Shown here one piece after another: positions 7,800-40,182 of a stretch of 56,368 nucleotides of DNA. The notes beneath the pieces were generated by a model. It ran no database searches. It saw only the letters and a list, made by a program, of their open reading frames with translations, and was not told the origin of the DNA. Position numbers and translations under genes: made by a program. The stretch is from Gammaproteobacteria bacterium (GTDB lineage: Bacteria; Pseudomonadota; Gammaproteobacteria; SZUA-152): contig JAADIL010000267.1 in assembly GCA_013151355.1 (NCBI GenBank), positions 1 to 56,368 on the forward strand. The letters are read 5' to 3'. Each line of letters begins with the position of its first letter. Position 1 is the stretch's first letter.

Positions 7800-8045
7800 T
7801 TATTGCCCTAAATCTTCAGGTGTCACAGGGTCAAATGCATTTCCGAACAAGCTGTGCAGAACCAGTATTTTCTCTTTTCCTTTTTCATTTTTAATTTCCT
7901 TCCAGGGGACTATGTAAAGAACTTGAGGAAGCTCTTTATTTCCTTTAATAAACGTTGTTTTCAGTTCGACCGAATCGTCAGCGATAATATGGCCAGCCAT
8001 TGAGGTTAATACAGAAATGACAAGACCTGTTATTATGAATTTCAT
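7800..8045 (-). CDS. Small exported protein (81 aa), last gene of the TPR four-gene set
   Basis: It has an N-terminal signal-like segment (MKFIITGLVISVLTSMAGHIIA). Its start overlaps the stop of the upstream TPR gene (ATGA). Confidence 0.6.
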   Translation of the reverse strand: MKFIITGLVISVLTSMAGHIIADDSVELKTTFIKGNKELPQVLYIVPWKEIKNEKGKEKILVLHSLFGNAFDPVTPEDLGQ

Positions 8046-8677
8046 GTATCACCATGATTTATATTTAGTTTAAGTTCTTCCACCCAGTTTTCTGTTTCTT
8101 CATCTTCGTCATCTGATAATGACAGATATTTCTGATAGTGTTTAACAGCTTCTGCAATATTTTGTAAATACACATCGTAAAGCAGGGCAAGATTATAATG
8201 GGCCAGGGCATATCCTGGTTTTTTTGTTATCGCCTTTTCATAATAGCTCTTTGCTTTATTGATATTTCCATTTTTCTCTTCCATAAATCCGGCCATATTT
8301 AATGCCTGCGCCATTTCCGGATTTTTTTCGAGCGCTTTCCGTATATTTTCTTTGGCTTTTTTATAGTGTTCCTGTTTGATATATATCACAGCAAGATTCG
8401 CCCATGGACCGGCGAAATCGGGGTGTGTCCTGGTGACTTCCAGGAAATGTTTTTCGGCTATTTTAAAATTATTGTTATTAAGTTCAGTGAGGGCATCCTG
8501 ATAAAGCGTAACAAGATTTTCTATTGATGGTTTTTCAGCAGTATTTTTATTTATTGTGCCTTTTGTTTTGGTTTGTGAGTGAGTGGAGAGTGTTTCTGGT
8601 GGTCCTGTGGCACAGCCTGCCAGTAAAACTGTCAGCGCCAATAGTAAAAGGAAACTCCTAGTGTAATACATTGACAT
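8042..8677 (-). CDS. TPR-repeat lipoprotein (211 aa)
   Basis: It has a lipobox (LLAGC). TPR-like units are present (..AKSYYEKAITKKPGYALAHYNLALLY..). It overlaps the upstream gene by 20 nt. Confidence 0.8.
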   Translation of the reverse strand: MSMYYTRSFLLLLALTVLLAGCATGPPETLSTHSQTKTKGTINKNTAEKPSIENLVTLYQDALTELNNNNFKIAEKHFLEVTRTHPDFAGPWANLAVIYIKQEHYKKAKENIRKALEKNPEMAQALNMAGFMEEKNGNINKAKSYYEKAITKKPGYALAHYNLALLYDVYLQNIAEAVKHYQKYLSLSDDEDEETENWVEELKLNINHGDT

Positions 8678-11471
8678 ACCCGTCCAGTTTTGTTTTTCGT
8701 TGGTATCTCACGGGAAATAACTTCTTGAGTTGTGTATGGCTTTTTTGAATCCACTCATCATAAATATCATTTTTAACGTAAGTCAGGTTGATTTCATAGA
8801 ACTCGATGGCCTTTTCTTCAAACGGGAAAGCCTGATCTTCGAGTAATATTTGATATTGATCCAGTTCATCATTATTCAGGTTTTCAGGGCGTTCCGAATC
8901 AAGCAGGGCAATGCTGAATTCATTGTATATGTCTGCAATTGAATGAGTTGCTTCTGTGGCAGTTTCAGCCACATTATAGGATGATGCGCGCCCATATAAA
9001 TTAACTGCGCGTTGCATGGCATTTTTTTTCTTTTTCAGACTTTTCTTTAACGGTAGTCGCAGTTTGGCATTGGTAAAGTCAACATGACTGTTTCGTGCCA
9101 GGTACAAGGCGGCAGAGGAGGCGATAAATCGGGTGCGATCGGACCCCGGTGAGTTTGAGAGCTTTTTGTCTTCCTGGATAATTTTATTTTGCCACAAATT
9201 AACTTTTACAGGGTTATCGTTTAATTCATACAGTGTGACGAGTTTAAACATGGATTCCATGTACTGCGGAAAAGGACGGCGGAAATTTCTTGCATATTTT
9301 TCAAATGAGCGTATGGCTGATTGATAATCTTTATTTGATTCATAGAGTTCACCAGCTTTCCATAAGGCAGCAAGGCGGTATTCTTTGTCCTGTTTATTAT
9401 CGGCCAGTTTTTCAAGTTCTCTTGCTGCTGCGATATCCTGCCTGGAGTTCAGGTAGGCGACAGTCAGTTTTTTGGCAACATCATATGCATTTTTGTGATG
9501 AGGATATAAACGTTGAAATTCTTTGATGTGTTTTATTGACTTGTTCCAAAGGTCTTTTTGCATGGCTAATGAAATAGCGTCATACATACCGGTTGCTGAA
9601 ATTTCTGAAGTGGGTGCGACTTGTGCGATTCGGCTATAGTGTTGAATTGCAGTAGAAATTTCCCCCTTTTCATGGGCAGATTTTCCCTGATAATAAATTG
9701 CCAGGGCCAGGCCATCAATGATAGATGAATCGTTTTTTTGGATTAAATCATAATCTCTTAATATGGTGCGATATATGTTTTCAGAATCCTCATATTGTTC
9801 CAGTTTAAAATATGAGTGTGCTTTTATGGTATTAATTTTTATCGCCATTGAACTGTTAATGCTGTTGGTTGCCAGTTCTGCCAGCATTATCGTTTCTTTG
9901 AACATGTTGTTTTTATAGGCAAGCTCACTGGCATGGGTAATAATATTGGCTGTTCGTTTATCATTTGGGTACTGTTGGCCATAAAGGGTAGAAAAATGGA
10001 TAAGTTTGTTCACCCAAAATAATATATCATCATTGTTTTTTTCTGAAGCGGATAGTTTTGATGCCAGTAAAACAGATTCATATGCAGAGTTCTTGTCAAT
10101 GATGATGTTTGAATCATAAGCGGCAAGCTCATAATGCTTTAAAGCGTCTGTGTTGTTTTTATTCTCGGCAAGAAGAGATGCATATAAATAATGGATATTA
10201 TCTTTCCTGGAATAAGAAGAATAATGTGCAAGATAATTCTCATACCATCGTTTGGTATTGGAATAATCCGTTACTTTGTGTGTTTTCAGGTATTTTTCAT
10301 GATAATTCGCCGTTATTGTCAGGATGTGTTGCCGAAGATCATTTTTTACCCGTTTAAAAATTCGTTGATCTATATTTTTTCTTGTTTTCCAGTATTTGCT
10401 GTCAGGGTGGTAAATAACATAAAAAGATTCCAGTGCGGTATTCATTCTTGAGGGAAAACCACCAGATTTCCAGATGTCGATGACTTTTAACAAGGCCTCT
10501 GGTACATAATCAGATTCGGGGTTTTGTTTTGAAAAATGTTGCAGGGCCAGTACCGCGTCATTTTTTCGGTCTTCTTTTATATAAAGATTGCTCAGGTGAG
10601 CGTATACGTAATATAAGTGTTTAAAATCAGGGTTGTTCTTAAAGTAAGAGTCGAGTGACTTTGCACCGCCCATATATGAGAATGAAAGACTGATAGCGCG
10701 GAAATATTCGTTAAACAGGTCTTTTTTTATGTCATTGAGTTTTTGGAATTCATCAAATTTGTTGAGTTCCACTGTTTGCAAAAAATCATCAACAGCTTCG
10801 AAATAAAATTCCTGTTTAAAACGGGCCCATCCGCGTTTGTATAGCGATTTTTCATAAAAAACACTACTCTTTTTTGAGCCAATGACTTCAGTATATTTAT
10901 CTTCAGCGAGGGAATATTTTTTGTTACTAAATGCATTTTCAGCAAGACGGAACTGACTTTCAGTATAATATTTTGATTTTTGGTGTTTTTTGGCCAGTTT
11001 TTTCAAGGTGGCGTGGGTATTTTTAGAATCACCTTTTTGGTCATAGGCTTTAGCCAGCTGGTACAGTTTTTTATCATTATTTTTATCGTCAGGATAATCA
11101 CGTAATGCGGTGCCAAGAAGTTCGATTGTTCTGTCCAGTTTTGCATTGTAAAGATTGTCATCCGCCATCTCGACCGCATCACTGTTTTGATCATTTTTAT
11201 TTTTTAATATTTGTTCGGATAATTTAAATTCCAGTGCGGCGAGTCTGCCAAGTGCATCAACCCTTGATTTATCATTTTTAGAAGCATGTTTCAGATATGT
11301 CGCGTAGGCTTTGCGAATATCATCACTTGATTTGGAAACAGGGTATGCCCCGTTTTTGGTTTCTTGTGCTGTATTGATATCAAGATCGGCTAATGTTGAT
11401 CGTTTTACCGAAGGACTGCTGCATGCGGTCAATAGGGGAATGACAGAAAGAAAAATTAATATGCTACGCAT
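8658..11471 (-). CDS. Large TPR-repeat lipoprotein (937 aa)
   Basis: It has a lipobox (LLTACSS) and many BamD/YbgF-style TPR units (..LYQLAKAYDQKGD.., ..ALWKAGELYESNKDYQSAIRSFEKY..). The gene is very AT-rich. Confidence 0.8.
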   Translation of the reverse strand: MRSILIFLSVIPLLTACSSPSVKRSTLADLDINTAQETKNGAYPVSKSSDDIRKAYATYLKHASKNDKSRVDALGRLAALEFKLSEQILKNKNDQNSDAVEMADDNLYNAKLDRTIELLGTALRDYPDDKNNDKKLYQLAKAYDQKGDSKNTHATLKKLAKKHQKSKYYTESQFRLAENAFSNKKYSLAEDKYTEVIGSKKSSVFYEKSLYKRGWARFKQEFYFEAVDDFLQTVELNKFDEFQKLNDIKKDLFNEYFRAISLSFSYMGGAKSLDSYFKNNPDFKHLYYVYAHLSNLYIKEDRKNDAVLALQHFSKQNPESDYVPEALLKVIDIWKSGGFPSRMNTALESFYVIYHPDSKYWKTRKNIDQRIFKRVKNDLRQHILTITANYHEKYLKTHKVTDYSNTKRWYENYLAHYSSYSRKDNIHYLYASLLAENKNNTDALKHYELAAYDSNIIIDKNSAYESVLLASKLSASEKNNDDILFWVNKLIHFSTLYGQQYPNDKRTANIITHASELAYKNNMFKETIMLAELATNSINSSMAIKINTIKAHSYFKLEQYEDSENIYRTILRDYDLIQKNDSSIIDGLALAIYYQGKSAHEKGEISTAIQHYSRIAQVAPTSEISATGMYDAISLAMQKDLWNKSIKHIKEFQRLYPHHKNAYDVAKKLTVAYLNSRQDIAAARELEKLADNKQDKEYRLAALWKAGELYESNKDYQSAIRSFEKYARNFRRPFPQYMESMFKLVTLYELNDNPVKVNLWQNKIIQEDKKLSNSPGSDRTRFIASSAALYLARNSHVDFTNAKLRLPLKKSLKKKKNAMQRAVNLYGRASSYNVAETATEATHSIADIYNEFSIALLDSERPENLNNDELDQYQILLEDQAFPFEEKAIEFYEINLTYVKNDIYDEWIQKSHTQLKKLFPVRYQRKTKLDGYVNVLH

Positions 11472-11476
11472 GATCG

Positions 11477-12946
11477 TTAGTTATCAATCAAATTGTTATC
11501 ATAAAGTCTGGCCAAACCAAACCTTGATTGGCCCATATAACTGTCAAGTCGTTTAATCCTTTTTCTGAGTATGTTACGAATCATTTTTATAATAACGGTT
11601 TTGTATTCATTGTTTAACTGGTCATATTCCATTCTAATATTTTTATTATCGATACGTTTGAAGTATTTTTCATAGGACTTAAACTCCAAATAATTTTCCA
11701 AAAAATAATCAGGGTATTCCCCGGAAAAATTAACCAGGTTATTGTTTATTTCAAGTATGGTGTTGATGTTTGTGCTGACTGGGTAGTTTTCCAGGCTGAT
11801 TTCAGAATTGATAATTGATTGTATATCTGCAATTCTTTTTTGATAGTAATTAATCGCCTCCAGATATCCAGCGGATGCTGTTGTGGGTTGTTGTAGTTTT
11901 TCGTAAAAATAGGGAATAAGTAACCAGGATTCGTCAACAGGAAGTTCGTATGTTTGTTTATCCCTTAAAATATGTGCGGTACTTAAAGCACCTACAAAAT
12001 CATTTTGATTGGCTGCGGTAAGAGTAATTCCCAGTAGTGCCCGAGTGGCGAATACACTGTCTATGCTGATGTTACGAAAAAAACTTCTCGAGTCCCTATA
12101 ATATTCCTGGTTCATTAACGAGTAACCCAGTGTTAAATATAGTCGGTTAATCGCTTCTTCCTGTTTTAATGCTTCAGCTGATTTCAGGGCATTCTGTATA
12201 AGAATATGTCCATCACTCCACCAGCCTTGTTTGATGTTGGCTATCGCCATGTTCAATCTTGCAGAAATATAATATTTTGAAGTGGGGTCTATTTTTTCAT
12301 AAAATTCTATCGATTCCCGGTGCTTGTTCAGTTTTTGCAGTGATACTCCCTGCATTAATAAAGAATGATAGCGATTCTCACCTGGCAAGTCATTTATAAC
12401 CCCGTCAAGAAACTCCAGTGTTTTTTTCCATTTGTTTTGTTTGAATGAAAATGTTGCAAATATATAGGTTGTATTTGATATTAATGTTTGATCTCCTTCA
12501 TTATTAATTAATTCAAAAAGTGCATTAGCAGTTTTGGTGTCATTTTGATTTAACAAAATGCGAATTAAATAAAAAATATTTCTATCGTCATAATTTTCAT
12601 TCAATACCGCAATGTTATTAAATATAATATTTGCAGCAAGAATATTGTTGTTTTCGCTAACGTGTTTTTCTACTGCTGATAATAACGGCTTTATTTGTTT
12701 ATATTTTTTGGAAGGCCATTGTGGTTGGGTTAACAGGAATGTCTGAAAATGACGAGAGAATAATTGGCGTTTACGGTCTGTTGATTCTATTAATGCATTT
12801 ATATCATCTGGTGTGTCAGTTAGTGCAGAATGCGACACTGCAGAAAATAGCAGTGTCGCCATAATGAACACAATTATTGTAAATATAGTTGTCGTATATT
12901 TAATCGTTTGATGATCTTTACGGGATGTTTTATCTGTGTGCAGCAT
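11477..12946 (-). CDS. Membrane-anchored TPR-like helical-repeat protein (489 aa)
   Basis: It has an N-terminal hydrophobic anchor (TIFTIIVFIMATLLFSAV) followed by helical-repeat sequence. It lies 6 nt upstream of the 937-aa gene and 66 nt downstream of clpV. Confidence 0.7.
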   Translation of the reverse strand: MLHTDKTSRKDHQTIKYTTTIFTIIVFIMATLLFSAVSHSALTDTPDDINALIESTDRKRQLFSRHFQTFLLTQPQWPSKKYKQIKPLLSAVEKHVSENNNILAANIIFNNIAVLNENYDDRNIFYLIRILLNQNDTKTANALFELINNEGDQTLISNTTYIFATFSFKQNKWKKTLEFLDGVINDLPGENRYHSLLMQGVSLQKLNKHRESIEFYEKIDPTSKYYISARLNMAIANIKQGWWSDGHILIQNALKSAEALKQEEAINRLYLTLGYSLMNQEYYRDSRSFFRNISIDSVFATRALLGITLTAANQNDFVGALSTAHILRDKQTYELPVDESWLLIPYFYEKLQQPTTASAGYLEAINYYQKRIADIQSIINSEISLENYPVSTNINTILEINNNLVNFSGEYPDYFLENYLEFKSYEKYFKRIDNKNIRMEYDQLNNEYKTVIIKMIRNILRKRIKRLDSYMGQSRFGLARLYDNNLIDN

Positions 12947-13012
12947 GTTTTAAATAATAAGTATTGTGAAAATAGATGTGTGTATTTTTCTTTCAGTATT
13001 AGTTAAAAAGCA

Positions 13013-15703
13013 TCAGGATACGGCGTAAGTAAATTGGCCGTCATCAGTCACGCCGACATGAATGCTGGATATTTCTTTTCCTTCCGCCAGTTTTGACAGG
13101 CATTCTGTTGCCATTTCAGGCAATAAGGTACGACTCAGAATATTTTCAATATTTCTGGCACCGGTGTCGACTTCCTGGCTACGTGCGACGATATGCAACA
13201 TGACGTCATCATGGTAACTGAATGCCGCATCATAATGACCTTTGATTCTTTTTTCTATTCTGCGCATATTAATTTTACAGATTTTGAGCAGGTCTTCATC
13301 GCCAAGTGGATAATAGGGAATTATGGTTGTTCTGCCCAAAAATGCAGGTTTGAAGAAATTTAACAGTTGAGGTCTGAAGTTATCCAACAGTACATCCGGG
13401 GATGGCAGTTCTTCGCTTTGTGAACATATTGCACGAATATGTTCTTCACCGGCATTGGAGGTCATGATGATAATGGTATTACGGAAGTCGATATCCCGGC
13501 CTTCACCATCTTTGATGGTACCCTTGTCAAACAGGTTATAAAATATATCCTGTACGCCGGGATGAGCCTTTTCCATTTCATCCAGTAAAAGCACACTGTA
13601 TGGTTTTCTGCGAACGGCTTCAGTGAGTACTCCGCCTTCACCATAGCCTACATACCCCGGTGGTGAACCTAACAACATTGATATTTTATGTTCTTCTTTA
13701 AACTCAGACATATTGATAGTGGAAATATTATGTTCTCCACCATATAAAGTATCGGCCAATGCCAGTGCGGATTCGGTTTTACCGACGCCGCTGGGGCCCA
13801 CCATAAGAAAGACTCCTATGGGTTTTCGAGGATCGGTTAAACCGGCTCTTGATGTGCGAATATTTTCAGCAAGGGCATTTAGTGCATGAGGTTGACCGAT
13901 GACACGATTACCCAATGCATCGGCAAGTTTCAGTATTGCGTCAATTTCATCAGAGACCATTTTTCCGACAGGGATACCGGTCCAGTTGGCAACCACTTCT
14001 GCAATGGCCTGACTCCCCACATTGACCTGGATCATCGGATTGTCACCCTGGATGTCGTCCAGTTTACTCATTAAACTGTGTAATTCAGTTTTAATATTTT
14101 TCAGGTCATTGTCACTGAGTAATGCTGGTGCATTATCTTTTTTGAGTTCATCTTCGGGCAATGATTGGGCGTGGTAATCATTTTCGATTTGTTTTTGTAG
14201 CTGATGTATTTCTTCAACTTTATTTTTTTCCTTGCCCCATTGTTCTTTTTGTTCCTTCAGGAGGAGCTCATTTTTCTGAAGTTCGGTTTTTAATCCAGCA
14301 ATTCTTTCTTCGCAATTACCCAGGGTTGCATTTTCACGTTCAAGTGAAGTTATGTTGGTCTGGCACTGTGTGATAGTTCGTCGTGTATCTTCAACCGCTG
14401 CCGGTGTTGCGCTCTGGCTGAGTGAGACCCGTGCGCAGGCGGTGTCCAGCAGACTGACGGATTTGTCCGGCAGTTGTCTGGCGGTAATATAACGACTTGA
14501 TAAACGAACAGAGTCAACAATGGCATCATCCATAATTTGTACACCATGATGACTTTGCAACATCACAGAAATAGCACGCATCATGTTGATTGCTTTTTCT
14601 TCGTCGGGTTCTTCGATTTTTACAATCTGGAAACGACGAGTGAGGGCAGGGTCCTTTTCAAAATATTTTTTATATTCTGCCCAGGTTGTTGCTGCGATAG
14701 TCCTTAATTCTCCTCGTGCCAACGCGGGTTTTAATAAATTTGCTGCATCTCCTTGTCCCTCTTTTCCTCCGGCACCTATTAATGTATGTGCTTCATCAAT
14801 AAACATGATGATCGGTTGCGGAGAGGCTTTGACTTCTGCGATGACAGATTTCAGCCGGTTTTCAAATTCACCTTTTACGCTTGCCCCGGCTTGCAGCAAG
14901 CCAAGGTCCAGGGAGCGTACCGATATTCCCCGTAATGGTTCGGGTACATCACCTGATGCAATCCTGAGCGCAAAGCCTTCCACGACAGCCGTTTTACCCA
15001 CACCGGCTTCTCCTGTCAGGATCGGGTTGTTTTGGCGTCTGCGAATCAGTATATCGATAATCTGCCGGATTTCTTCATCCCGGCCAAGAACGGCATCGAT
15101 TTTTCCCTGTTTTGCATCATCCGTTAAATTGACGGTGAATTTATCCAGGGCAGGTGTTTTGCTGGGTATGCCGGAGGCTGCTGTTCCTGTGGCACTTGTG
15201 GTGTCACCGGTTGCGGTGCTTTTTGATTCTGTGGTCGTGCCCACAATGGCACGCACAACTTCACGCAGGGATTCCGGCTGAATTTTTTTCAATTCACCTG
15301 AAGAGGCTTCGGTTGTTCTGCGAAGATTGTCATCCAGAATCAGGGCGGCAAGAATATGCGCTGAGGTGGCTATCGGATGAGCATATTCCACCGAGGCCAG
15401 CATCCAGGCATTTTTGGCAATATCAACGATGGTGGGGGAAAGTGCCGGAGCCCGGGTGTTTCCCGATTTGATTCTGTCGAGCTCCCGGTTTAAATCCTGC
15501 ATCAATTTACCCAGGTCAATTTCAAATTTATCGATAATAGACAGTACATCGCTATCCGGGATTTCCAGCAGTTTTAGTAACCAGTGTTCAATTTCAACAT
15601 TGTAGTGCGATCGCGACAGACATAATCCTGCGGCACCTTCCAATGCGTTCCGTGTTGGTTCGTTTAATTTTCCAACCAGTGATTTCAGGTCAATTGTTAT
15701 CAT
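13013..15703 (-). CDS. tssH: T6SS AAA+ ATPase ClpV (TssH)
   Basis: It has a Clp N-domain and two AAA+ modules with Walker A motifs GEAGVGKTA and GPSGVGKTE. It sits within the T6SS operon. Confidence 0.95.
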   Translation of the reverse strand: MITIDLKSLVGKLNEPTRNALEGAAGLCLSRSHYNVEIEHWLLKLLEIPDSDVLSIIDKFEIDLGKLMQDLNRELDRIKSGNTRAPALSPTIVDIAKNAWMLASVEYAHPIATSAHILAALILDDNLRRTTEASSGELKKIQPESLREVVRAIVGTTTESKSTATGDTTSATGTAASGIPSKTPALDKFTVNLTDDAKQGKIDAVLGRDEEIRQIIDILIRRRQNNPILTGEAGVGKTAVVEGFALRIASGDVPEPLRGISVRSLDLGLLQAGASVKGEFENRLKSVIAEVKASPQPIIMFIDEAHTLIGAGGKEGQGDAANLLKPALARGELRTIAATTWAEYKKYFEKDPALTRRFQIVKIEEPDEEKAINMMRAISVMLQSHHGVQIMDDAIVDSVRLSSRYITARQLPDKSVSLLDTACARVSLSQSATPAAVEDTRRTITQCQTNITSLERENATLGNCEERIAGLKTELQKNELLLKEQKEQWGKEKNKVEEIHQLQKQIENDYHAQSLPEDELKKDNAPALLSDNDLKNIKTELHSLMSKLDDIQGDNPMIQVNVGSQAIAEVVANWTGIPVGKMVSDEIDAILKLADALGNRVIGQPHALNALAENIRTSRAGLTDPRKPIGVFLMVGPSGVGKTESALALADTLYGGEHNISTINMSEFKEEHKISMLLGSPPGYVGYGEGGVLTEAVRRKPYSVLLLDEMEKAHPGVQDIFYNLFDKGTIKDGEGRDIDFRNTIIIMTSNAGEEHIRAICSQSEELPSPDVLLDNFRPQLLNFFKPAFLGRTTIIPYYPLGDEDLLKICKINMRRIEKRIKGHYDAAFSYHDDVMLHIVARSQEVDTGARNIENILSRTLLPEMATECLSKLAEGKEISSIHVGVTDDGQFTYAVS

Positions 15704-15785
15704 AATGATTCTCTTTTGTTTGCACTTTTATTTGCATTTTTGTTTTCAAAAATATTGAGGTCAATTACATTTCAACATTTCTTGT

Positions 15786-18691: not shown

Positions 18692-19178
18692 GACTTATTT
18701 CCTTCACACTGACCGTTCTGGTGACGGACTCAAGAATTGAATCAAATACAACAATTTCCGGCAATGGGTCTGCATAAATAACAGCATCGATTCTAAATCG
18801 TAAGGTTCGGTCAGTTTTATCGAAATTTTCCAAAAAAGATACCTTTACAGATTTAAACCTGGGTTCAAAATAATTGAGCGTTTGCTCCAGTTTTCGGGAA
18901 AACTCATTTCGTTTTTCAATGTCAATAATGTTGACGGTGGCCAGGTCGGGCAGCCCGTAGTTTAATAATGACTTGTCGAGTTCCGGAAAATTGTCAGGTG
19001 GCTCTGAAATATAAAAACGTGTATTCAGCAAAAACTCAAGGTCTCGACGAATACTGTTGCGTAACTGTTTTAATATTTGATGGTTAGAATCACTGTCTGT
19101 TTTGTTATGTGTTTCATTATCAAAAAGTCGATCCAGAACGGATGGGCGTAATTTTTTCTTTTTATCGACGCGTGCCAT
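18684..19178 (-). CDS. tssE: T6SS baseplate protein TssE (gp25-like)
   Basis: The size fits and the sequence is gp25/GPW-like (SVLDRL..LRNSIRRDLEFLLNTR). It lies between tssC' and tssF. Confidence 0.9.
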   Translation of the reverse strand: MARVDKKKKLRPSVLDRLFDNETHNKTDSDSNHQILKQLRNSIRRDLEFLLNTRFYISEPPDNFPELDKSLLNYGLPDLATVNIIDIEKRNEFSRKLEQTLNYFEPRFKSVKVSFLENFDKTDRTLRFRIDAVIYADPLPEIVVFDSILESVTRTVSVKEISHG

Positions 19179-19181
19179 TAT

Positions 19182-20699: not shown

Positions 20700-20741
20700 G
20701 GGTTGAGTGATTTTTCTGTTTACGTTATGAGGTGAAATCAG

Positions 20742-20763: not shown

Positions 20764-20772
20764 TTGTTTGCA

Positions 20773-26279: not shown

Positions 26280-26307
26280 ATGTTTTATTAAATTTCAGGG
26301 AATTACC

Positions 26308-28334: not shown

Positions 28335-28362
28335 TTTTGTGCACATCATTCAGGAGTAATTA

Positions 28363-29298: not shown

Positions 29299-29339
29299 CA
29301 TTTATTGTAAACCAAAGCATTGTAAACCCGAGTAAAGAT

Positions 29340-32912: not shown

Positions 32913-33653
32913 ATGGGCATGGAACAACAATGTGGTGTTTATGGGAAACTACCCATGCATGGAGATTTTGTTCACAGAAATTTACCGGCCACATTTGTCA
33001 AAACATGGGATGAGTGGTTGCAATTATATATTGCCAGCTCAAAAGAGCAGATGGGTGATGAATGGCTCGATACCTATCTGACAAGCCCAATCTGGCGTTT
33101 TGTGCTTTCATCAGGCGTTATTGATGAACAACACTGGGCCGGGATCATGCTTCCGAGCGTCGATCATGTGGGACGGTATTATCCTTTTTCAATTGTTATG
33201 CCTCTTGATCCGGAGTTGAACCCCCTTGAATTTGTTTCATTCCATACACACTGGTTTGAAAGTATTGAGGAGTTAGCTTTACAGGCGCTGGAAGAACAGT
33301 TTTCAGTGGATGAACTTGTTGATAAGGTCAACGGTATTAACGTTGATTTTACACTGAGCTATATTAAGACGACTAAAGCCACAGTTAAAGCGGGACAACC
33401 ATTAGATACCCACTCAATGCAAATGAATCTGGAATTTGATGAACAATCTCCGCTATCGGTTTATGCCTGTTTTCTGGATTCAATTATGCTGAAAACATTG
33501 AATTGTTATAGTATCTGGACGACTCGTGGGTCGGAAAAAATTAACCCGTGTTTAATGAGTATTAAAAATTTACCCGCAGCTAATCAATTACCGGCCATGA
33601 TGGATGGACAATGGGCGTACTGGGGCTGGCCACAACCTTATTCTGTAAAATAA
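32913..33653 (+). CDS. tagF: T6SS post-translational regulator TagF
   Basis: GVYGKLPMHGDFVHRNLP..WDEWLQ is the TagF (DUF2094) signature. The start abuts the tssM stop. Confidence 0.9.
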   Translation: MGMEQQCGVYGKLPMHGDFVHRNLPATFVKTWDEWLQLYIASSKEQMGDEWLDTYLTSPIWRFVLSSGVIDEQHWAGIMLPSVDHVGRYYPFSIVMPLDPELNPLEFVSFHTHWFESIEELALQALEEQFSVDELVDKVNGINVDFTLSYIKTTKATVKAGQPLDTHSMQMNLEFDEQSPLSVYACFLDSIMLKTLNCYSIWTTRGSEKINPCLMSIKNLPAANQLPAMMDGQWAYWGWPQPYSVK

Positions 33654-33654
33654 A

Positions 33655-34419
33655 ATGATGACTGATATAACAATAAGAAGACCTGTGCAATGGCTCAGTG
33701 CGTCAACAACCAATGTTGGCGTAGTGCGGAAAATCAATGAGGATGCCGTATTTTCAAAACCGGATATTAATTTATGGGCGGTTGCAGATGGTATGGGCGG
33801 GCATGAAGCAGGAAATGTTGCCAGTAACATGATTGTAAACATGCTCAATGACATTGAAACAGAAATTAACCTGGATACTTTTGTTTCGACGATTGAAGAT
33901 AAAATTCTGGATGTCAATAAACGACTTCTGGAATATTCTGAAATTATGCTTGAAGGGCGTATTATCGGCAGTACTGTTGCCATTCTTTTGATAAAAGGTC
34001 GTGTTGGTATTTGTCTTTGGGCGGGTGATTCACGATTATATCGTTATCGAAATAATGATATTGAACAAATGACAGTTGATCATAGTCATGTCGCGGAATT
34101 GCTCAAAAATGGAACAATTTCAATCGGGGAAGCAGAAAACCATCCCGATGCAAATGTCATCACCCGGGCTGTCGGGACATGTGAGGATTTGTATGTTGAC
34201 ATTGATGTTTTTGATGTCAGTGTGGGTGACACGTTTATGCTGTGTACCGACGGGTTGTATAATGCGGTCAATGAAGAAAGTATTATCAACTGTTTACAGG
34301 AAGACGATGTTGAAATAGCCGCAAACAATCTCATTGAAACATCCTTGCACAACGGCGCTTCTGACAATGTGTCAGTGGTTCTGGTTAAAGGTGTGCGCAG
34401 CAGTACTACCAGCCAATAA
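33655..34419 (+). CDS. pppA: PP2C-type Ser/Thr phosphatase PppA
   Basis: It has PP2C motifs (WAVADGMGGHEAGNVAS, LCTDGL, ASDNVSVVLV). It lies between tagF and ppkA. Confidence 0.9.
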   Translation: MMTDITIRRPVQWLSASTTNVGVVRKINEDAVFSKPDINLWAVADGMGGHEAGNVASNMIVNMLNDIETEINLDTFVSTIEDKILDVNKRLLEYSEIMLEGRIIGSTVAILLIKGRVGICLWAGDSRLYRYRNNDIEQMTVDHSHVAELLKNGTISIGEAENHPDANVITRAVGTCEDLYVDIDVFDVSVGDTFMLCTDGLYNAVNEESIINCLQEDDVEIAANNLIETSLHNGASDNVSVVLVKGVRSSTTSQ

Positions 34420-34447: not shown

Positions 34448-37222
34448 ATGACCAAACCTGACGACCCCGGGAAGAAAGAGGGGGCAAGCTCACAAACAAT
34501 AAACGAACTTCCTGGTACCGGGGGGCGCACGCACGTCAATGACAAGACGATTGTTTCAGATAAAACCAGAATTTTTGATAAAGCCATCATGTCGGGCCAT
34601 CCGGGAGAGGGAACCGAACCCGGCTTGCATAATAATACATCAGTTGACGATAGTAACATTCCACCAGGCAAGAAAAACCTGCATGAAAATACCCCGTCAG
34701 CTTTGGAAAACATAAATCATGGAAAAAATGATGTCACACGGTTTAAGCCACCTGCTCAAAACCATGAAAAAAGTGATGTCACACGGTTCAAGTCACCTGG
34801 TCAAAACCCGCAACATAATAAAAAAGGTGATGAGCCACCAAAAACACTCATAAAACATACATCTACTATTTTAGATGATAACGTTGTCGTCAATAAACCC
34901 GAAGATAAGCAGACAAAGGTATTAAAAGACCGGTTTTTACTTGAGAAAGTGCTGGGTGTCGGTGGCATGGGGGTTGTATACAAAGCCAAAGATCGTCTGA
35001 AAGTCGAAGCTCAGGACAGAGACCCGTACGTAGCTATTAAAGTATTGAGCGAGGAGTTCAAAACTCATCCAGAGGCATTCATAGCCCTTCAGCGAGAGTC
35101 CAGAAAGGCACAACGTATTGCACATCCCAACACTGTAAAAGTCTATGACTTTGACAGAGATGGTGATGTTGTATTTATGACCATGGAATACATGGAAGGA
35201 AAACCTCTGGATCAACTGATTAAACAATATCACGCGACGGGTCTTCCGCAGGATGATGCATGGCATATTTTATCTGGAATGTGTTCAGCTCTGGCACATG
35301 CGCATTCCGAGAATATTGTCCATTCAGATTTTAAACCGGGTAATGTTTTTGTTACGACTAACGGAATGGCTAAAATATTTGACTTTGGGATTGCACGGGC
35401 GGTTGCAAATATTGATCGGCATACTGGAAAAGAGCAAGATCAGACCGTTTTTGATGCGGGTGGGTTGGGTGCATTGACCCCTGCATACGCAAGCCGTGAG
35501 ATGTTATTGGGGAAAACGCCGGATATCCGTGACGATATATATGCATTAGGTTGTGTTGCGTATGAGTTATTTTCAGGAGACCACCCATTTAACCGATTGC
35601 CAGCAGATGAAGCGTACAATAAAAAACTTAAACCAAAACGAATAAATAATATCAGCAAGCGTCAATGGAAGGCGATAGAGGCAGCATTAGCATTTAAACG
35701 TGAAAACCGCATTGAATCTGTCGATGCATTTTACAAGCAGTTGACGTTCAAGAAAAAGTCAAGATTTATGTTGGCGACGTTCTTGTTATTTATTACTGCC
35801 GGAGCTGCATATTATATGTATATACAAACAAATAATATTGTGCCGCAAGTGCCCCTGTTTTCGGAATCCGATATCAGGAATGAGCTGGAGTTTGATATAC
35901 GCTATAACCTCTACAAAGAAAATATTGAAAAACTGGTTGCTAAACCCAGCTTTACAAATGAGTGGGAAGAAAGTCTCTGGAGTGAGATTCAGGGCATATT
36001 GGGAATTCTTTCAGGTAAACCTAATGAATGGTATTCATCCATGCGAGACAAGGTTTCTCAATTATACGTAAACAAAATTGAGGCGCTTGTGAAAAAACGT
36101 GATTACTCTCACGTAAAAATTCTTATAGAAAATGCTTATCGTTATACTGATGATAACAGTTTTTTGGATAACGAAAAAATTACGCTTGCAGAAGCAATAA
36201 AGGAAGAAGGAATTCGGGACAAAAAACGTGCTGAAAGAGGCAGAAAATCGGCCATTGAAAAAGCAAAGAAAAAGGAAAAAGAATTAACAAAGGAAATAAA
36301 AAACACTGGTTTGTTTGACATAGCGCTTGCAAATGTCAACAAACAATTAAAGTGCTCATCAAAACTGAATATGCGTGATTTTAATATTGCTATCACTAAA
36401 TTACGTGATCTGGATCATAAAAAATATGCGAGTATGGAAAATACATTATCAACACGATTGGCGCAGTGTATTGTCTCTATCGGAAAGCGTTTTCCTGAAC
36501 ATGCACTGGATGCAAAACGTTATGCGCTGCATATCTTTAAAGATAACCCTGCGTTGCTGGCAATTGCTATAAAAGAAAAAGATGTTTGCAATCTTTCAAT
36601 TGCAGGCCTGGGTGCACGGGGTGACCGTGCTGTTTGTCGTGACAAACTTAAAAATGGTGGTGTCGGGCCTGTATTGGTTGTTGTACCTGCCAGTTCCAGA
36701 ATCAAGGCATTTGCTATCGGAAAATATGAAACATCGGTCGCTGAATTAAACGAGTTTTGTAAAGTTTCTTCAAAATGTAATTTACAAACTGATAAAGCGG
36801 GTGATTTGCCAGCAACCAATGTTGAAATATCGACAATATCGGCTTATTTAAAATGGTTAAGTAAAAACACGAAGAAAAAATACAGATTACCGACAAAAAA
36901 AGAATGGGTATATGCCTCCAAATCAAAACAGTATGTTCTTGACCCAAACCGTAATTGTCAATTAAGTGCGAGAGGTATTGAAAAAGGTGGCTCACTTGTT
37001 AAAACCGTTACAGGCAAACAAAATGGATGGGGGCTGGTTAACTACGCAGGAAATGCCCGGGAATTTGCATTTGAAACCGGTAGAAGGTTTGTGGTTCTTG
37101 GTGGTTCACATAAGTCCTCGATGGAGGATTGTACTGCATTGACAGTATCCACTCATTCAGGGAATGCTGATAAATATACAGGTTTTCGTGTCATCAGGGA
37201 TATCGGTGAGAAACAAAAATGA
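34448..37222 (+). CDS. ppkA: Transmembrane Hanks-type Ser/Thr kinase PpkA with a C-terminal FGE-sulfatase (SUMF1)-like domain
   Basis: Kinase motifs are present (GVGGMGVVYKAKD, HSDFKPGNV, DFGIAR). A TM segment (FMLATFLLFITAGAAYYMYI) follows. The C-terminus is FGE-like (YRLPTKKEWVYA..NGWGLVNYAGNAREF..YTGFRVIRD). Confidence 0.9.
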   Translation: MTKPDDPGKKEGASSQTINELPGTGGRTHVNDKTIVSDKTRIFDKAIMSGHPGEGTEPGLHNNTSVDDSNIPPGKKNLHENTPSALENINHGKNDVTRFKPPAQNHEKSDVTRFKSPGQNPQHNKKGDEPPKTLIKHTSTILDDNVVVNKPEDKQTKVLKDRFLLEKVLGVGGMGVVYKAKDRLKVEAQDRDPYVAIKVLSEEFKTHPEAFIALQRESRKAQRIAHPNTVKVYDFDRDGDVVFMTMEYMEGKPLDQLIKQYHATGLPQDDAWHILSGMCSALAHAHSENIVHSDFKPGNVFVTTNGMAKIFDFGIARAVANIDRHTGKEQDQTVFDAGGLGALTPAYASREMLLGKTPDIRDDIYALGCVAYELFSGDHPFNRLPADEAYNKKLKPKRINNISKRQWKAIEAALAFKRENRIESVDAFYKQLTFKKKSRFMLATFLLFITAGAAYYMYIQTNNIVPQVPLFSESDIRNELEFDIRYNLYKENIEKLVAKPSFTNEWEESLWSEIQGILGILSGKPNEWYSSMRDKVSQLYVNKIEALVKKRDYSHVKILIENAYRYTDDNSFLDNEKITLAEAIKEEGIRDKKRAERGRKSAIEKAKKKEKELTKEIKNTGLFDIALANVNKQLKCSSKLNMRDFNIAITKLRDLDHKKYASMENTLSTRLAQCIVSIGKRFPEHALDAKRYALHIFKDNPALLAIAIKEKDVCNLSIAGLGARGDRAVCRDKLKNGGVGPVLVVVPASSRIKAFAIGKYETSVAELNEFCKVSSKCNLQTDKAGDLPATNVEISTISAYLKWLSKNTKKKYRLPTKKEWVYASKSKQYVLDPNRNCQLSARGIEKGGSLVKTVTGKQNGWGLVNYAGNAREFAFETGRRFVVLGGSHKSSMEDCTALTVSTHSGNADKYTGFRVIRDIGEKQK

Positions 37223-37470
37223 ATATTTCAGAGTTTTCAACAGCGTTACGTGAGTTATCGGATGATTATTCCAGTCAAAGAATAGTCCTCGATGAATATC
37301 GATTAAAAAGAAAGCATTTTTTGGATGAAATTGATCAAACATTCAATCATCAAAATTATGCAGATATTTCCCGGGCTGTTGAAAAATCAGAAGAATCAGA
37401 TAATCCGGTGCTGGAGATAATCAACAAGGTTTTCGATTTTGATAAAAAAAATGATGATAGCAAAAAATAA
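37219..37470 (+). CDS. Hypothetical acidic 83-aa protein, translationally coupled to ppkA
   Basis: Its ATG overlaps the ppkA stop (ATGA). It has no recognisable domain. Confidence 0.5.
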   Translation: MNISEFSTALRELSDDYSSQRIVLDEYRLKRKHFLDEIDQTFNHQNYADISRAVEKSEESDNPVLEIINKVFDFDKKNDDSKK

Positions 37471-37523: not shown

Positions 37524-38144
37524 TTGATGGAAATTGTTAAATTATTCCAGGCGGGTGGGCCGTTTATGTATCCTATTTTGGGGGTATTTGCCATTGGTGT
37601 CGCAATAGCACTGGAACGATATTTTTATTTGAGTAAAACAGGCAAGATAACCAATAAAATCTGGCTTCAGTTGATTCCCATGCTCAAGGCGCTGGATTTT
37701 GAACGTGCCGTTAAATTAACCGAGTCTGTTAAAACACCCATCACAATGGTATTGAATTACGGTTTTTCCCGGCACAGTGAAAATAAACGCCGGGAAATAA
37801 TTGAAGCGGCAATGGAAGAGGGAATGATGGACGCTATGCCCGATCTGGTACAGCGCACACACTACCTTGCGACATTTGCCAATGTTGCTACTCTGCTGGG
37901 CTTGCTTGGAACCATTGTCGGCCTGATCCAGGCTTTTACCGCAGTGGCTCAGGCTGATCCCGCAGAAAAGGCAGATTTATTGTCAGCCAGTATATCTGTT
38001 GCCATGAATACAACGGCTTTTGGGTTAATGGCAGCGATTCCTTTACTGCTTGCGCATTCCTACCTGGTAACAAAAACGGCACGGCTTGTGGACAGCCTGG
38101 AAAAAGCTGCCGTCAAGTCAATTAACCTGATGGTCAGAGACTAA
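37524..38144 (+). CDS. MotA/TolQ/ExbB-family proton-channel protein
   Basis: It has three TM segments and the family motif ..ATLLGLLGTIVGLIQAF..ISVAMNTTAFGLMAAIP.. Confidence 0.9.
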   Translation: MMEIVKLFQAGGPFMYPILGVFAIGVAIALERYFYLSKTGKITNKIWLQLIPMLKALDFERAVKLTESVKTPITMVLNYGFSRHSENKRREIIEAAMEEGMMDAMPDLVQRTHYLATFANVATLLGLLGTIVGLIQAFTAVAQADPAEKADLLSASISVAMNTTAFGLMAAIPLLLAHSYLVTKTARLVDSLEKAAVKSINLMVRD

Positions 38145-38159
38145 AAAGTCATTCACACC

Positions 38160-38684
38160 ATGAAAAAATCATCTTTTAAACATCTTCATGAGGCAGAAGA
38201 GCTTAATATCACTGCGTTTATGAATTTAATGGTGATATTGGTCCCTTTTCTGCTTATCACTGCCGTATTTTCAAGAATGACAGTGTTGGAGCTAAACCTG
38301 CCCGCTTTGGATGCCAAAGCAAATACTCAGGAAAAGGTAGAACTTCAACTGGAACTGGTTTTACGTGAAAACAGTTTTGATATACGAGATACAAACCTTG
38401 GCGTTATTAAAGTATTTCCACGGACCCAGGGCGAAACACGCTGGGATTTGTTTACCGATTTATTGGTGGAAATCAAAACCCGTTTTCCTGATGAGCAAGA
38501 TATTACACTGCTTTTGGAGCCCTCGATCAGTTATAAAACATTAATACAAGTCATGGATCGTGTGCGCACCGCAGATGTGGTTTCAGTCCTGACGGTAGAA
38601 ACCATTGAGTTATTTCCCAATATTTCCATCGGAGATGCAGAAACAGACGTGCAGAAAAATAGTCCGAATGGAGACCGGAAGTGA
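38160..38684 (+). CDS. ExbD/TolR-family protein (paralog 1, Asn in place of the conserved TM Asp)
   Basis: LNITAFMNLMVILVPFLL aligns to E. coli ExbD INVTPFIDVMLVLL. The periplasmic domain is typical (..YKTLIQVMDRVR..). Confidence 0.85.
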   Translation: MKKSSFKHLHEAEELNITAFMNLMVILVPFLLITAVFSRMTVLELNLPALDAKANTQEKVELQLELVLRENSFDIRDTNLGVIKVFPRTQGETRWDLFTDLLVEIKTRFPDEQDITLLLEPSISYKTLIQVMDRVRTADVVSVLTVETIELFPNISIGDAETDVQKNSPNGDRK

Positions 38685-39181
38685 ATAGTTTAAAGCTTTC
38701 CAGCCGTTCAAAACGAATGGATCACTTCAAGGAATTGCATGGTCGCAGTGGTTTAAACCTTGTTTCATTAATGGATATTTTCACGATACTTGTCTTTTTT
38801 CTTCTGGTGAGTTCCGGTGCACAACAGTTGCCTAATAGCAAAGATATTACATTGCCGACATCCGTTGCGAACAATGTTCCAAAAGAGACGCTAATCATTG
38901 TAATCACCAAAACCGATGTATTGGTTCAGGGAAAAAAGGTTGCTGCAATTTCTGATTTATTAACCAGTCAGGAAATAATCATTGCTGCCCTGGAGACAGA
39001 ACTAAAATTTCAGGCTTCAAAAAGTCAATTCATAAAAACGGATAAAAAAACAGGCCGTGCGATTACCATAATGGGTGATGAAAATATTCCGTATCAACTG
39101 TTACGAAAAATTCTCGCGACCTGCCGTCAGGCTAACTACACCACGATAGCATTTGCCGCCTTTCAGAAGGCAAAGGGCTAG
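38681..39181 (+). CDS. ExbD/TolR-family protein (paralog 2, TM Asp conserved)
   Basis: LNLVSLMDIFTILVFFLL retains the Asp. It overlaps the paralog 1 stop by 4 nt. Confidence 0.85.
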   Translation: MNSLKLSSRSKRMDHFKELHGRSGLNLVSLMDIFTILVFFLLVSSGAQQLPNSKDITLPTSVANNVPKETLIIVITKTDVLVQGKKVAAISDLLTSQEIIIAALETELKFQASKSQFIKTDKKTGRAITIMGDENIPYQLLRKILATCRQANYTTIAFAAFQKAKG

Positions 39182-39186
39182 TTTTT

Positions 39187-40182
39187 ATGAATGCCGTATC
39201 GTATCAAAGCCTTGCACTCGCATGGCAACCAAAAAATAAACGCGACAAGCCATTTATATTATTTACTCTATTGATACTTGCCCTGTTTTTGGGAACAGGT
39301 GCTTTTTTTAGTTCTATAAAAGTTCCGAAGGAAGAGCGTCGGGTAAAAGCTGTCATACCAGACAGAATTGCCAAATTTTTACTTGATAAACCCAGACTGG
39401 CCCCCAAGCCTGAACCAAAGCCAAAAAAAATTGAAAAACCCAGGCCCAAACCGACTCCCAAACCCAAGGTCAAACGGGAAAAACCAAAAAAAGAAATCAA
39501 GCTGACTGAAACGCAAAAGGTTGCGCGCAAAAAAGCAGGAGAAAGTGGTTTGATTGCCCTTAGTGAAGAGCTGTCTGATTTGATGGATACGTCAAGTATT
39601 GATTCGATGGTGGGTAATCCCATAAAAAAATCAGGCAAACAGACGCAAATTGCTTCTGTTGATACCCGAATTTTAATGGCAGGGTCGACAGAGGGTAGCG
39701 GCGGTGTAAAACAGGAAGAGCATCTATCAAAAATTGTCGGCACAACAAAGCTTGATAGTACTCAGAACTCGATGGCGCGAAAATTAATTACGGCTCGCGC
39801 TGGAGAAAATTCAGTCAAGCCTGATCCAACAGGTTCGACTGAAACAACGGATTCAGCAAAGAGTAAAGTGAAAAAACAGGCAAGGGTTGGGAATTATCGC
39901 TCAGAAGAAGACATTGCTTATGTTGTCGATAAAAACAAGGGCAAACTGCATGCTACTTATCGTCGGGCTCGCAGGAGTGATCCGGGGATTCAGGGGAAAA
40001 TTGTGCTTGAAATTACCATTTTGCCATCCGGAAAAGTAGAAAGTGTCAGGATTACCTCAAGCGAATTACAAAATGCCAAACTGGAGGCCCGTATTATTGC
40101 CCGGGTAAAACAGTTCGATTTTGGTGCTCAAAACGTAAAGAAAGTAACGGTGACTTATCCCATCGAGTTTTTGCCATCATAG
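39187..40182 (+). CDS. TonB-like energy-transducer protein (AgmX/GltG-like C-terminal domain suspected)
   Basis: It has an N-terminal TM segment, a Pro/Lys-rich spacer (PKPEPKPKKIEKPRPKPTPKPKVKREKPKK) and a C-terminal domain (YRRARRSDPGIQGKIVLEITILPSGKVESVRI..VTVTYPIEF). Confidence 0.8.
   Translation: MNAVSYQSLALAWQPKNKRDKPFILFTLLILALFLGTGAFFSSIKVPKEERRVKAVIPDRIAKFLLDKPRLAPKPEPKPKKIEKPRPKPTPKPKVKREKPKKEIKLTETQKVARKKAGESGLIALSEELSDLMDTSSIDSMVGNPIKKSGKQTQIASVDTRILMAGSTEGSGGVKQEEHLSKIVGTTKLDSTQNSMARKLITARAGENSVKPDPTGSTETTDSAKSKVKKQARVGNYRSEEDIAYVVDKNKGKLHATYRRARRSDPGIQGKIVLEITILPSGKVESVRITSSELQNAKLEARIIARVKQFDFGAQNVKKVTVTYPIEFLPS

Follow-up and report, generated by a model that had tools for sequence, protein, structure and literature searches.

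Do the motor-like genes that lie on both sides of a type VI secretion system (T6SS) locus belong to that system, and what might they do for it? This question is raised by a 56,368-nucleotide (nt) stretch of DNA, referred to here as the window, from a metagenome-assembled gammaproteobacterial genome (GCA_013151355.1, contig JAADIL010000267.1). Between positions 7800 and 40182 of the window a T6SS core locus is flanked on one side by a block of four genes for tetratricopeptide repeat (TPR) proteins and their companions, and on the other by an ExbB-like gene, two ExbD-like genes and a TonB-like gene. A first-pass annotation, made from the sequence alone, offered two models for this arrangement: an undescribed accessory machine coupled to the T6SS, or the insertion of a T6SS island into the divergent promoter region of a pre-existing TPR/Exb locus. 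The comparisons presented here strongly favour the first model. Synteny is conserved in many families, in at least four locus architectures that keep the module and the T6SS together, and judging from these gene neighbourhoods the module is very probably tied to the T6SS in function. We further consider it probable that the module is a T6SS-dedicated paralogue of the Agl/Glt core complex, deriving its power from the proton motive force (PMF), with an output that reaches the T6SS most probably by way of the kinase PpkA.

The component set itself belongs to a published family. Luciano et al. (2011; PMC3169522) described the ancestral core of the Myxococcus gliding machinery as aglR, aglQ, aglS, gltG, gltC, gltD and gltE, with one extra gene, 'X', that is absent from the Myxococcales, and they reported gltC-gltD-gltE-X-aglR-aglQ-aglS-gltG from Gammaproteobacteria as a single cluster 'of unknown function'. 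The sizes in their Table S3 are 550-690 amino acids (aa) for the GltC-like, 933-1016 aa for the GltD-like, 160-263 aa for the GltE-like and 321-334 aa for the GltG-like proteins (PMC3169522). The same table lists TERTU_1670-1672 as the closest homologues of MXAN_6862/6861/6860 (PMC3169522). The T. turnerae genome paper draws the T6SS locus as TERTU_1639-1668 and omits its neighbours; the core-complex genes TERTU_1670-1672 abut that locus.

Two contiguous clusters of this type, L168 and L171, were compared with the window. Their genes encode, in order, 695, 964, 206, 92, 225, 164, 166 and 336 aa in L168 and 474, 947, 205, 108, 209, 172, 166 and 331 aa in L171, and no T6SS gene was found within 10 kb of either. 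All eight flanking proteins of the window have homologues in both clusters, in the same order. In the comparison with L168, the 937-aa TPR protein (TPR937) is 30% identical to the 964-aa protein over its full length (E 1e-126), the ExbB is 55% and the ExbDs are 48% and 42% identical, and the motif of the small exported protein of 81 aa (sm81) is shared. For L171 the corresponding identities are 70% for ExbB, 65% and 57% for the ExbDs and 36% for TPR937. The 489-aa helical-repeat protein (TM489) matches the first gene of L171 with 30% identity (E 5e-47) and that of L168 with an E value of 2e-10. The two halves are adjacent in L030, L041, L082, L154 and L171, and GltC-like and GltD-like proteins are fused in some relatives (L170, positions 1408-5646, protein P0270, and other matches of 1400-1550 aa). 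Because they match the contiguous clusters, because their halves adjoin each other elsewhere and because such fusions occur, the eight flanking genes are identified by sequence and order as one system, an Agl/Glt core complex split between X (sm81) and aglR (exbB). The Agl/Glt-like reading of the first-pass annotation therefore stands, although with some differences from the published clusters. The eight-gene content is the same, and order and sizes are very similar within each half, but in place of a single cluster the halves in the window are 24 kb apart, on opposite strands, with the T6SS core between them. ExbB and GltC measure 217-245 aa and 550-695 aa in the core complex and are shorter, 205 and 475-530 aa, in the T6SS-linked form. 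Finally, the module here is tightly linked to ppkA, and the paper on the core complex mentions no linkage with a T6SS.

The linkage with the T6SS is recurrent. A profile scan with TPR937, using one genome per species, found a relative in at least 567 genomes, of which the best 80 loci were kept; on the TPR side 65 of these 80 could be assessed and 15 were too short. The relatives are found in Kangiellaceae, Colwellia, Psychromonas, Cellvibrionaceae (among them Teredinibacter, Cellvibrio, Saccharophagus and Agarilytica), Thioalkalispiraceae, Ectothiorhodospiraceae and others. The four-gene block follows tssE-tssF-tssG-clpV, as in the window, in 47 of the 65 assessable loci; in 11/65 its neighbours are other genes of a T6SS (hcp-vgrG-PAAR, or a core in convergent orientation), it is divergent from ppkA-exbB-exbD-exbD-tonB in three, and the remaining four have no T6SS gene in the flank examined. 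The Exb side gives a similar picture: ppkA is directly upstream of exbB in 40 of the 42 metagenome loci with enough upstream sequence, and the pair is usually preceded by pppA, tagF and tssM. L105, L107, L109 and L110 have the order tssL-tssM-tagF-pppA-ppkA-exbB-exbD-exbD-tonB-tssA-tssB-tssC on one strand, so that the Exb half lies inside the T6SS locus, between ppkA and tssA. The outer flanks are wholly different between Aliikangiella, Colwellia and the metagenome-assembled genomes (MAGs). As the arrangement recurs in well over 100 independent loci, it is far beyond what chance would produce, and the survey of relatives proposed with the first-pass annotation thus shows a recurring T6SS, TPR and Exb combination on both sides.

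The halves need not be close together. On one 778-kb metagenome contig (Ga0316204_10000020) they are separated by about 125 kb, as L007, where the TPR block is beside hcp-vgrG-DUF6931-PAAR, and L129, with the order tssL-tssM-tagF-pppA-ppkA-exbB-exbD-exbD-tonB. The halves can therefore lie far apart with each still beside T6SS genes. A stand-alone nine-gene unit that includes ppkA is present at positions 2501-13654 of L082, on a complete MAG chromosome (OZ246012.1), in the order [tonB-like<-exbD<-exbD<-exbB<-ppkA][GltC-like->TPR944->TPR211->small ORF]. On its TPR-block side one unassigned open reading frame (ORF) is followed by ligA, zipA and smc, and no T6SS structural gene was found within the 10-kb flanks examined.

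It could be argued that the flanking genes form an independent Tol-like or core-complex envelope machine that shares its island with the T6SS, whether or not by insertion of the T6SS into a TPR/Exb locus. The contiguous relatives without an adjacent T6SS (L168 and L171) and the loci L154 and L139, which have no T6SS genes in the flank examined, are what such a machine would lead one to expect, and insertion of a T6SS into a divergent [ppkA-exb-tonB][TPR block] unit like that of L082 could give the layout of the window. We nevertheless regard this explanation as improbable. The linkage is kept across many families with different outer flanks and in several architectures, a relocated TPR block is again found beside T6SS genes, and the T6SS-linked copies form a group of their own in the concatenated tree described below. 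In addition, the canonical clusters are collinear, so a simple insertion fails to yield divergent halves. As an explanation of the linkage we rejected the second model of the first-pass annotation, in which a T6SS lands in the divergent promoter region of a TPR/Exb locus, because the non-T6SS relatives L168 and L171 are collinear and the linkage is too recurrent.

In a tree of concatenated ExbB, ExbD1 and ExbD2 sequences the T6SS-linked sequences group together, with the contiguous L171 as their sister. Since the non-T6SS contiguous relatives branch outside the T6SS-linked group in this tree, the simplest history would be that an H1-type T6SS captured a core-complex paralogue once and that the two were then inherited together, with a rearrangement now and then. 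Several observations weigh against a module dedicated to the T6SS. The trees, built by neighbour joining and rooted on L168 only, carry no bootstrap values, and the TPR937 tree places L171 within the T6SS-linked group. In L171 the two halves adjoin, and the flank examined shows neither ppkA nor a T6SS gene; in L154 the adjacent TPR and Exb blocks are divergent, again with neither in the flank examined, and this locus branches inside the T6SS-linked group of the concatenated tree. Contiguous or adjoining TPR-Exb loci without a T6SS, which the first-pass annotation counted against functional coupling, thus do occur, one of them (L171) basal and the other (L154) nested. L139 is a stand-alone exbB-exbD-exbD-tonB operon with no T6SS gene in the flank examined, and the four TPR blocks noted above are in the same position. 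The non-T6SS paralogues are without a kinase, which implies that the basic activity of the module is independent of PpkA. The acidic 83-aa protein encoded between ppkA and exbB (sm83) is detectable in part of the loci only and was missed in many. In some genomes the gap between clpV and the gene for TM489 widens to several hundred nt, and the latter may therefore have a promoter of its own. Finally, claims beyond the identity of the genes rest on synteny and comparative genomics, and it is from these that we infer complex formation, dependence on the PMF and the PpkA route.

The Exb half has the features of a stator with its force transducer. Pfam searches confirmed the MotA_ExbB, ExbD (twice) and TonB_C domains named in the first-pass annotation, as well as the TPR repeats of the other half; the two ExbD proteins score 51.6 and 62.1 bits against PF02472. 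At the level of NCBIfam equivalogs the top match of ExbB is TolQ (64 bits against a cut-off of 221), with exbB at 45.6 against 206, and TolR gives 28.5 and 29.3 bits for ExbD1 and ExbD2 against a cut-off of 127; none of the exbB, exbD, tolQ and tolR cut-offs is reached by ExbB or by either ExbD. TolQ and TolR are thus the best NCBIfam matches of all three proteins, but the module is not a Tol-Pal system: scores are far below the equivalog cut-offs, no TolB or Pal is encoded in the island, the module has two distinct TolR-like genes, and the C-terminal fold of the TonB-like protein is nearer to TonB than to TolA. The two ExbDs are consistently different from each other. In ExbD1 the position of the essential transmembrane Asp, aligned with D25 of E. 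coli ExbD, is occupied by Asn (N22) in 70 of 70 homologues, and in ExbD2 the transmembrane Asp (D32) is kept in all 76. The same Asn/Asp pair is found in the non-T6SS contiguous cluster L168 (positions 14518-15509), which makes the asymmetry a trait of the whole core-complex family.

The TonB-like protein consists of an N-terminal transmembrane helix, a Pro/Lys-rich linker and a C-terminal TonB fold of the AgmX/PglI type. Residues 239-328 match NF033768 (AgmX/PglI C-terminal domain) with 76.3 bits against a cut-off of 40, compared with 38.9 against 27.1 for tonB_Cterm (TIGR01352) and 33.2 against 24.6 for PF03544, and the initial impression of a C-terminus closer to the AgmX/GltG type than to classical TonB was therefore correct. 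NCBI likewise names the homologues from Aliikangiella, Colwellia and Psychromonas as AgmX/PglI C-terminal domain proteins. In an AlphaFold (AF2) model built on 14 homologues the C-terminal domain has a predicted local distance difference test (pLDDT) score of about 90, and its best Foldseek matches in the PDB are the C-terminal domains of HasB, TonB and FusB, with TolA weaker; the root-mean-square deviation from Neisseria TonB is about 2 A over 67-68 aligned columns. Sequence searches of solved structures gave insignificant matches only for the profile of the TonB-like protein and none for ExbD2. The N-terminus has a weak NCBIfam match to TolA. E. coli TonB and TolA carry a conserved His in their N-terminal transmembrane helix (the SHLS motif); in the TonB-like protein this helix contains no His, and across 14 homologues none of its polar residues is invariant.

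These data bear on the possibility that the genes simply energise TonB-dependent nutrient uptake, as an ordinary ExbB-ExbD-TonB system with the TPR proteins as accessories. The Pfam domains MotA_ExbB, ExbD and TonB_C are indeed those of siderophore systems, the C-terminal fold matches receptor-bound TonB C-terminal domains, and a homologue is annotated once as 'TPR domain protein, putative component of TonB system'. We regard this reading as highly improbable all the same, as the scores stay below every NCBIfam equivalog cut-off for exbB, exbD and tonB, the AgmX/PglI model fits the C-terminal domain better than tonB_Cterm, the transmembrane helix is without the His, and the ExbD pair is asymmetric, ExbD1 having lost the essential Asp. 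The module includes no TonB-dependent receptor. Moreover, the related MAG locus L003 has, right next door at positions 11195-15330, a classical exbB-exbD-tonB cluster that also includes hemP and a TonB-dependent receptor, convergent after the T6SS-linked TonB-like gene, which indicates that this cell keeps a separate conventional TonB system. A siderophore or nutrient TonB system was therefore rejected as a candidate on the absence of equivalog matches and of a receptor, and the comparison with siderophore-uptake families proposed at the outset leaves the Agl/Glt-like assignment in place.

The TPR half would supply the outer-membrane and periplasmic parts. The 937-aa and 211-aa proteins had been annotated as lipoproteins, and in agreement with this the lipobox Cys is conserved at position 17 of TPR937 in 73 of 77 relatives and at position 22 of TPR211 in 62 of 63. 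TPR211 shows a partial match to the NCBIfam GltE model, with 52.5 bits against a cut-off of 225. TPR937 contains YbgF/CpoB-like and BamD-like stretches below cut-off (tol_pal_ybgF 54.1 against 90.1, NCBIfam), and its family comprises 1479 cluster representatives at 50% identity with E<=1e-30; member names of the distant clusters are uninformative, being mostly unnamed metagenome proteins. A homologue of TM489 is the first gene of the four-gene block in all loci. Its N-terminus is hydrophobic, and this segment could either anchor the protein in the membrane, as first described, or be cleaved off as a signal peptide; the counterpart in L168 has an ordinary signal peptide. The natural fusions between GltC-like and GltD-like proteins suggest that the 489-aa and 937-aa proteins interact physically. 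No GltD- or GltC-type NCBIfam model was matched at E<=10 by TPR937, TM489, sm81 or sm83, and since no Myxococcus profile was matched the GltC and GltD labels rest on position, size and homology with the contiguous clusters. The sm81 protein has no Pfam or NCBIfam match; its motifs IKGNKELPQ(I/V)LY(V/I)VPW and LVLHSLFG are conserved in 54 distinct homologues, and a counterpart follows the small TPR lipoprotein in the contiguous non-T6SS clusters L168 and L171 too.

How might such a module serve a T6SS? Four observations favour PpkA as the recipient of its output. The ppkA gene is the constant upstream neighbour of exbB; it stays with the module in the absence of an adjacent T6SS structural gene (L082); the FGE-sulfatase-like C-terminal domain of PpkA is co-conserved with the module; and the module occupies the position held by tagTSRQ after ppkA in the P. 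aeruginosa H1-T6SS. A transmembrane segment is predicted around residue 450 in the PpkA of the window, and the FGE-sulfatase-like domain that follows it is presumably periplasmic. The full-length protein, including this domain, is conserved in 55 of 61 loci. Its N-terminal ~150 residues are of low complexity, and an additional kinase paralogue is present nearby in L002 and L123.

In strain PAO1 tagTSRQ lie directly downstream of fha-tssJKLM-tagF-pppA-ppkA. The module shares with TagQRST this place in the locus and a general build in which an inner-membrane complex is combined with one or more periplasmic proteins and outer-membrane lipoproteins. There is, however, no sequence relationship: TagTS is ABC-transporter-like and ATP-driven, as opposed to a presumably PMF-driven module of the TolQR/TonB type, and no ABC transporter gene follows ppkA here, its place being taken by sm83, exbB, exbD, exbD and the tonB-like gene. 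The ectodomain of P. aeruginosa PpkA is of the vWA type, in contrast to the FGE-sulfatase-like C-terminal domain of the PpkA studied here. In the H1-T6SS of P. aeruginosa TagQRST senses membrane damage and guides the site of T6SS assembly, and TagQRST-PpkA-Fha is the established H1-T6SS route for the sensing of envelope damage (PMC10482370).

By analogy with the established behaviour of TolQRA, ExbBD-TonB and AglRQS-GltG, an inner-membrane stator of the TolQR type, made of ExbB and an obligate ExbD1/ExbD2 heterodimer in which only ExbD2 would carry the protonatable Asp, would harvest the PMF. Proton flow would be converted to conformational work on the GltG-type transducer, whose C-terminal TonB fold would reach a scaffold in the periplasm and at the outer membrane, built from the GltC-like protein, both TPR lipoproteins and the small protein that is exported. 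The interaction of AglR with GltG was shown by Luciano et al. (PMC3169522). The energised trans-envelope link would pass its output to the T6SS, envelope contact or perturbation most probably being reported to the ectodomain of PpkA, and this input would gate the phosphorylation of Fha/TagH and so when and where a T6SS is assembled. Action through PpkA is on balance a tentative proposal, suggested by gene neighbourhood, and falls a little short of an even chance. The broader account, in which a widespread H1-type T6SS lineage recruited a PMF-driven motor of the Agl/Glt type that senses force across the envelope, or exerts it, and decides through PpkA when and where the T6SS fires, is close to evenly poised.

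A mechanical role that does not pass through PpkA would be a different use of the same parts: a PMF-driven accessory that anchors, positions or moves TssJLM, or that remodels or reseals the peptidoglycan and the outer membrane where the T6SS fires. The Agl-Glt and Agl-Nfs machines offer an analogy, since they move envelope cargo, and the Myxococcus relatives of the core complex are directional envelope motors (PMC3169522, PMC3858216). The paralogues outside T6SS loci are without a kinase, TPR blocks detached from the core are often beside hcp-vgrG-PAAR (L007, L017, L019, L039), and CpoB/YbgF-like and BamD-like stretches are present in TPR937. A further argument is that TssL apparently has no peptidoglycan-binding extension, so that another anchor might be needed; it matches positions 15-271 only of the 438-position DotU model and on this evidence appears to end before such a C-terminal extension. 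Yet the tightest and most persistent linkage is with ppkA (40/42 loci, and kept in L030, L041 and L082), the place in the locus is that of the TagTSRQ sensor, and Pfam and NCBIfam reveal no peptidoglycan-binding or hydrolase domain in the module. We therefore consider a mechanical accessory unlikely, though it is the alternative to signalling through PpkA with the most to recommend it among those weighed here.

The module is not a gliding machine, and a gliding function is not expected. The logic is the same as in the Agl-Glt and Agl-Nfs machines of M. xanthus, with a PMF-driven TolQR-type motor, a TonB-like protein (GltG/GltJ/NfsG) and TPR proteins, and the C-terminal domain family is shared (NF033768 is passed). 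However, gltA, B, F, H, I, J and K, the Group A genes specific to Myxococcales, are absent from the island, and scores against the M. xanthus gliding equivalogs for GltE (NF033758), GltG (NF033760) and GltJ (NF033761) are 52.5, 36.3 and 36.4, below the respective cut-offs of 225, 650 and 450. The core complex alone is insufficient for motility (PMC3169522).

The first-pass annotation had called a coupled machine of this kind undescribed. For the component set this is incorrect, as the core complex is already published; the T6SS link is undescribed within the searchable literature. Full-text searches, which do not cover most subscription journals, found no paper linking the module to a T6SS. 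Neither 'T6SS' nor 'type VI' occurs in PMC3169522, a 2025 paper on periplasmic force transducers in Molecular Biology and Evolution (MBE) makes no mention of T6SS, and a 2026 review of T6SS accessory factors makes none of TonB, ExbB, TolQ, TPR or proton. Since 2011 the Agl/Glt core complex of Gammaproteobacteria has remained an orphan, and a paralogue wired to a T6SS gives it a testable phenotype in culturable carriers such as Teredinibacter, Saccharophagus, Cellvibrio, Colwellia and Aliikangiella. If our interpretation is right, the module would be the first PMF-powered T6SS accessory, and this would be the first function for the core complex ancestral to the Myxococcus gliding and spore-coat machines. 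It would represent a new accessory class, with a bearing on how T6SSs outside Pseudomonas sense contact or attack and choose their assembly sites. The fixed Asn/Asp asymmetry of the ExbDs also offers a clear-cut starting point for studying the mechanism of heteromeric TolR-type plugs.

The features of the locus are collected in Table 1.

Table 1. Features of the T6SS island and its flanking module in the window, in order of position.
Feature	Position	Strand	Basis or context
TPR/helical-repeat half, 4 genes	7800-12946	minus	3' of clpV
sm81, 81-aa exported protein, gene 'X' counterpart	7800-8045	minus	Signal-peptide-like N-terminus, position
TPR211, 211-aa TPR outer-membrane lipoprotein, GltE position	8042-8677	minus	TPR_1/2/8, lipobox
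TPR937, 937-aa TPR lipoprotein, GltD position	8658-11471	minus	TPR matches, lipobox
TM489, 489-aa helical-repeat protein, GltC position	11477-12946	minus	Weak ANAPC3/TPR matches
clpV-TM489 junction, 66 nt	12947-13012	minus	AT-rich
T6SS operon tssA-tssB-tssC1-tssC2-tssE-tssF-tssG-clpV	13013-23960	minus	NCBIfam equivalogs above cut-off
clpV	13013-15703	minus	NCBIfam equivalog
Second tssC-like gene (tssC2), 505 aa	19182-20699	minus	38% identical to TssC1
tssA	22857-23960	minus	NCBIfam equivalog
Divergent intergenic region tssA/tagH, 747 bp	23961-24707		
T6SS operon tagH(fha)-tssJ-tssK-tssL-tssM-tagF-pppA	24708-34419	plus	NCBIfam equivalogs
ppkA, Ser/Thr kinase	34448-37222	plus	Pkinase and FGE-sulfatase Pfam matches
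sm83, 83-aa acidic protein without signal sequence	37219-37470	plus	ATGA-coupled to ppkA
Exb half: ExbB, ExbD1, ExbD2, TonB-like gene	37527-40182	plus	3' of ppkA and sm83
ExbB/TolQ/AglR-like putative proton-channel subunit, 205 aa	37527-38144	plus	MotA_ExbB PF01618, 98 bits
ExbD1, ExbD/TolR-like	38160-38684	plus	Pfam ExbD PF02472
ExbD2, ExbD/TolR-like	38681-39181	plus	Pfam ExbD PF02472
TonB-like, GltG-type putative force transducer	39187-40182	plus	NF033768 and TonB_C

The genes, strands, overlaps and junctions of the island were reproduced from a six-frame ORF list with translations, and every ORF between 7800 and 40182 is accounted for. The layout, the tight packing of the genes and the terminator-free junctions are as first described, with one small correction: the gap between the genes for TM489 and TPR937 is 5 nt, not 6 nt. 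The genes for TPR937 and TPR211 overlap by 20 nt, and those for TPR211 and sm81 share an ATGA overlap. Between sm83 and ExbB there are 53-56 nt, depending on the start of ExbB, for which the ATG at 37527, behind a GAGGG motif, is more likely than the listed TTG at 37524. Pattern scans found no intrinsic-terminator-like site or hairpin at the clpV-TM489 junction or at the junction on the ppkA side, and a simple pattern scan of the tssA-tagH intergenic region found no sigma-54-like motif. In 48 related loci the gap between clpV and the TM489 gene has an approximate median of ~79 nt and a maximum of 692 nt, and the spacing of genes within each half is minimal throughout. Co-transcription of the T6SS operons with the flanking module genes is plausible from this layout.

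The T6SS itself has the gene set of the H1 type, a T6SS-i with threonine phosphorylation pathway, with tssA-C, E-G, clpV and tssJ-M as well as tagH, tagF, pppA and ppkA (NCBIfam/Pfam); tssA, tssB, tssC1, the second tssC-like gene, tssE, tssF, tssG and clpV all score above the NCBIfam equivalog cut-offs. No gene for Hcp, VgrG or PAAR was found in the 56-kb window. The second tssC-like gene, between tssC1 and tssE, is kept in essentially all related loci; in the P. aeruginosa H1 locus its position is taken by hcp1 and tagJ1. An extra ORF of 130-146 aa lies between tssG and clpV in Aliikangiella (L005, 5175-5567) and Colwellia (L006, 5174-5614); the window has no such ORF, and a gap of 82 nt is found there instead. 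The sm83 protein has no Pfam or NCBIfam match, and the part conserved among 19 distinct homologues is made up of its N-terminal 40 residues (LRELSDDY..DEYRLKRK..LLDEIDQ).

The island is flanked by greB, mobA, mobB and moeA on one side and by maf and mazG on the other, and its GC content is 35-45%, compared with 45-54% in the flanks within the window. The greB gene (7261-7779, minus strand) begins 20 nt past the stop codon of sm81, on the same strand and with no terminator between them, and transcription of the T6SS/TPR operon may run on into greB; a promoter-like site is also present within the 3' end of sm81 (7826-7799). About 3 kb outside the island, downstream of a gene for a RoxA-like cytochrome c, an ORF at 3569-4549 (plus strand) encodes a 326-aa protein with the catalytic domain of a Tle1-like T6SS phospholipase (PF09994, 259 bits), and on the strength of this domain the protein may be a T6SS effector. 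In the genome scan a fragment 97% identical to DNA of the window was binned as Methylomarinum.

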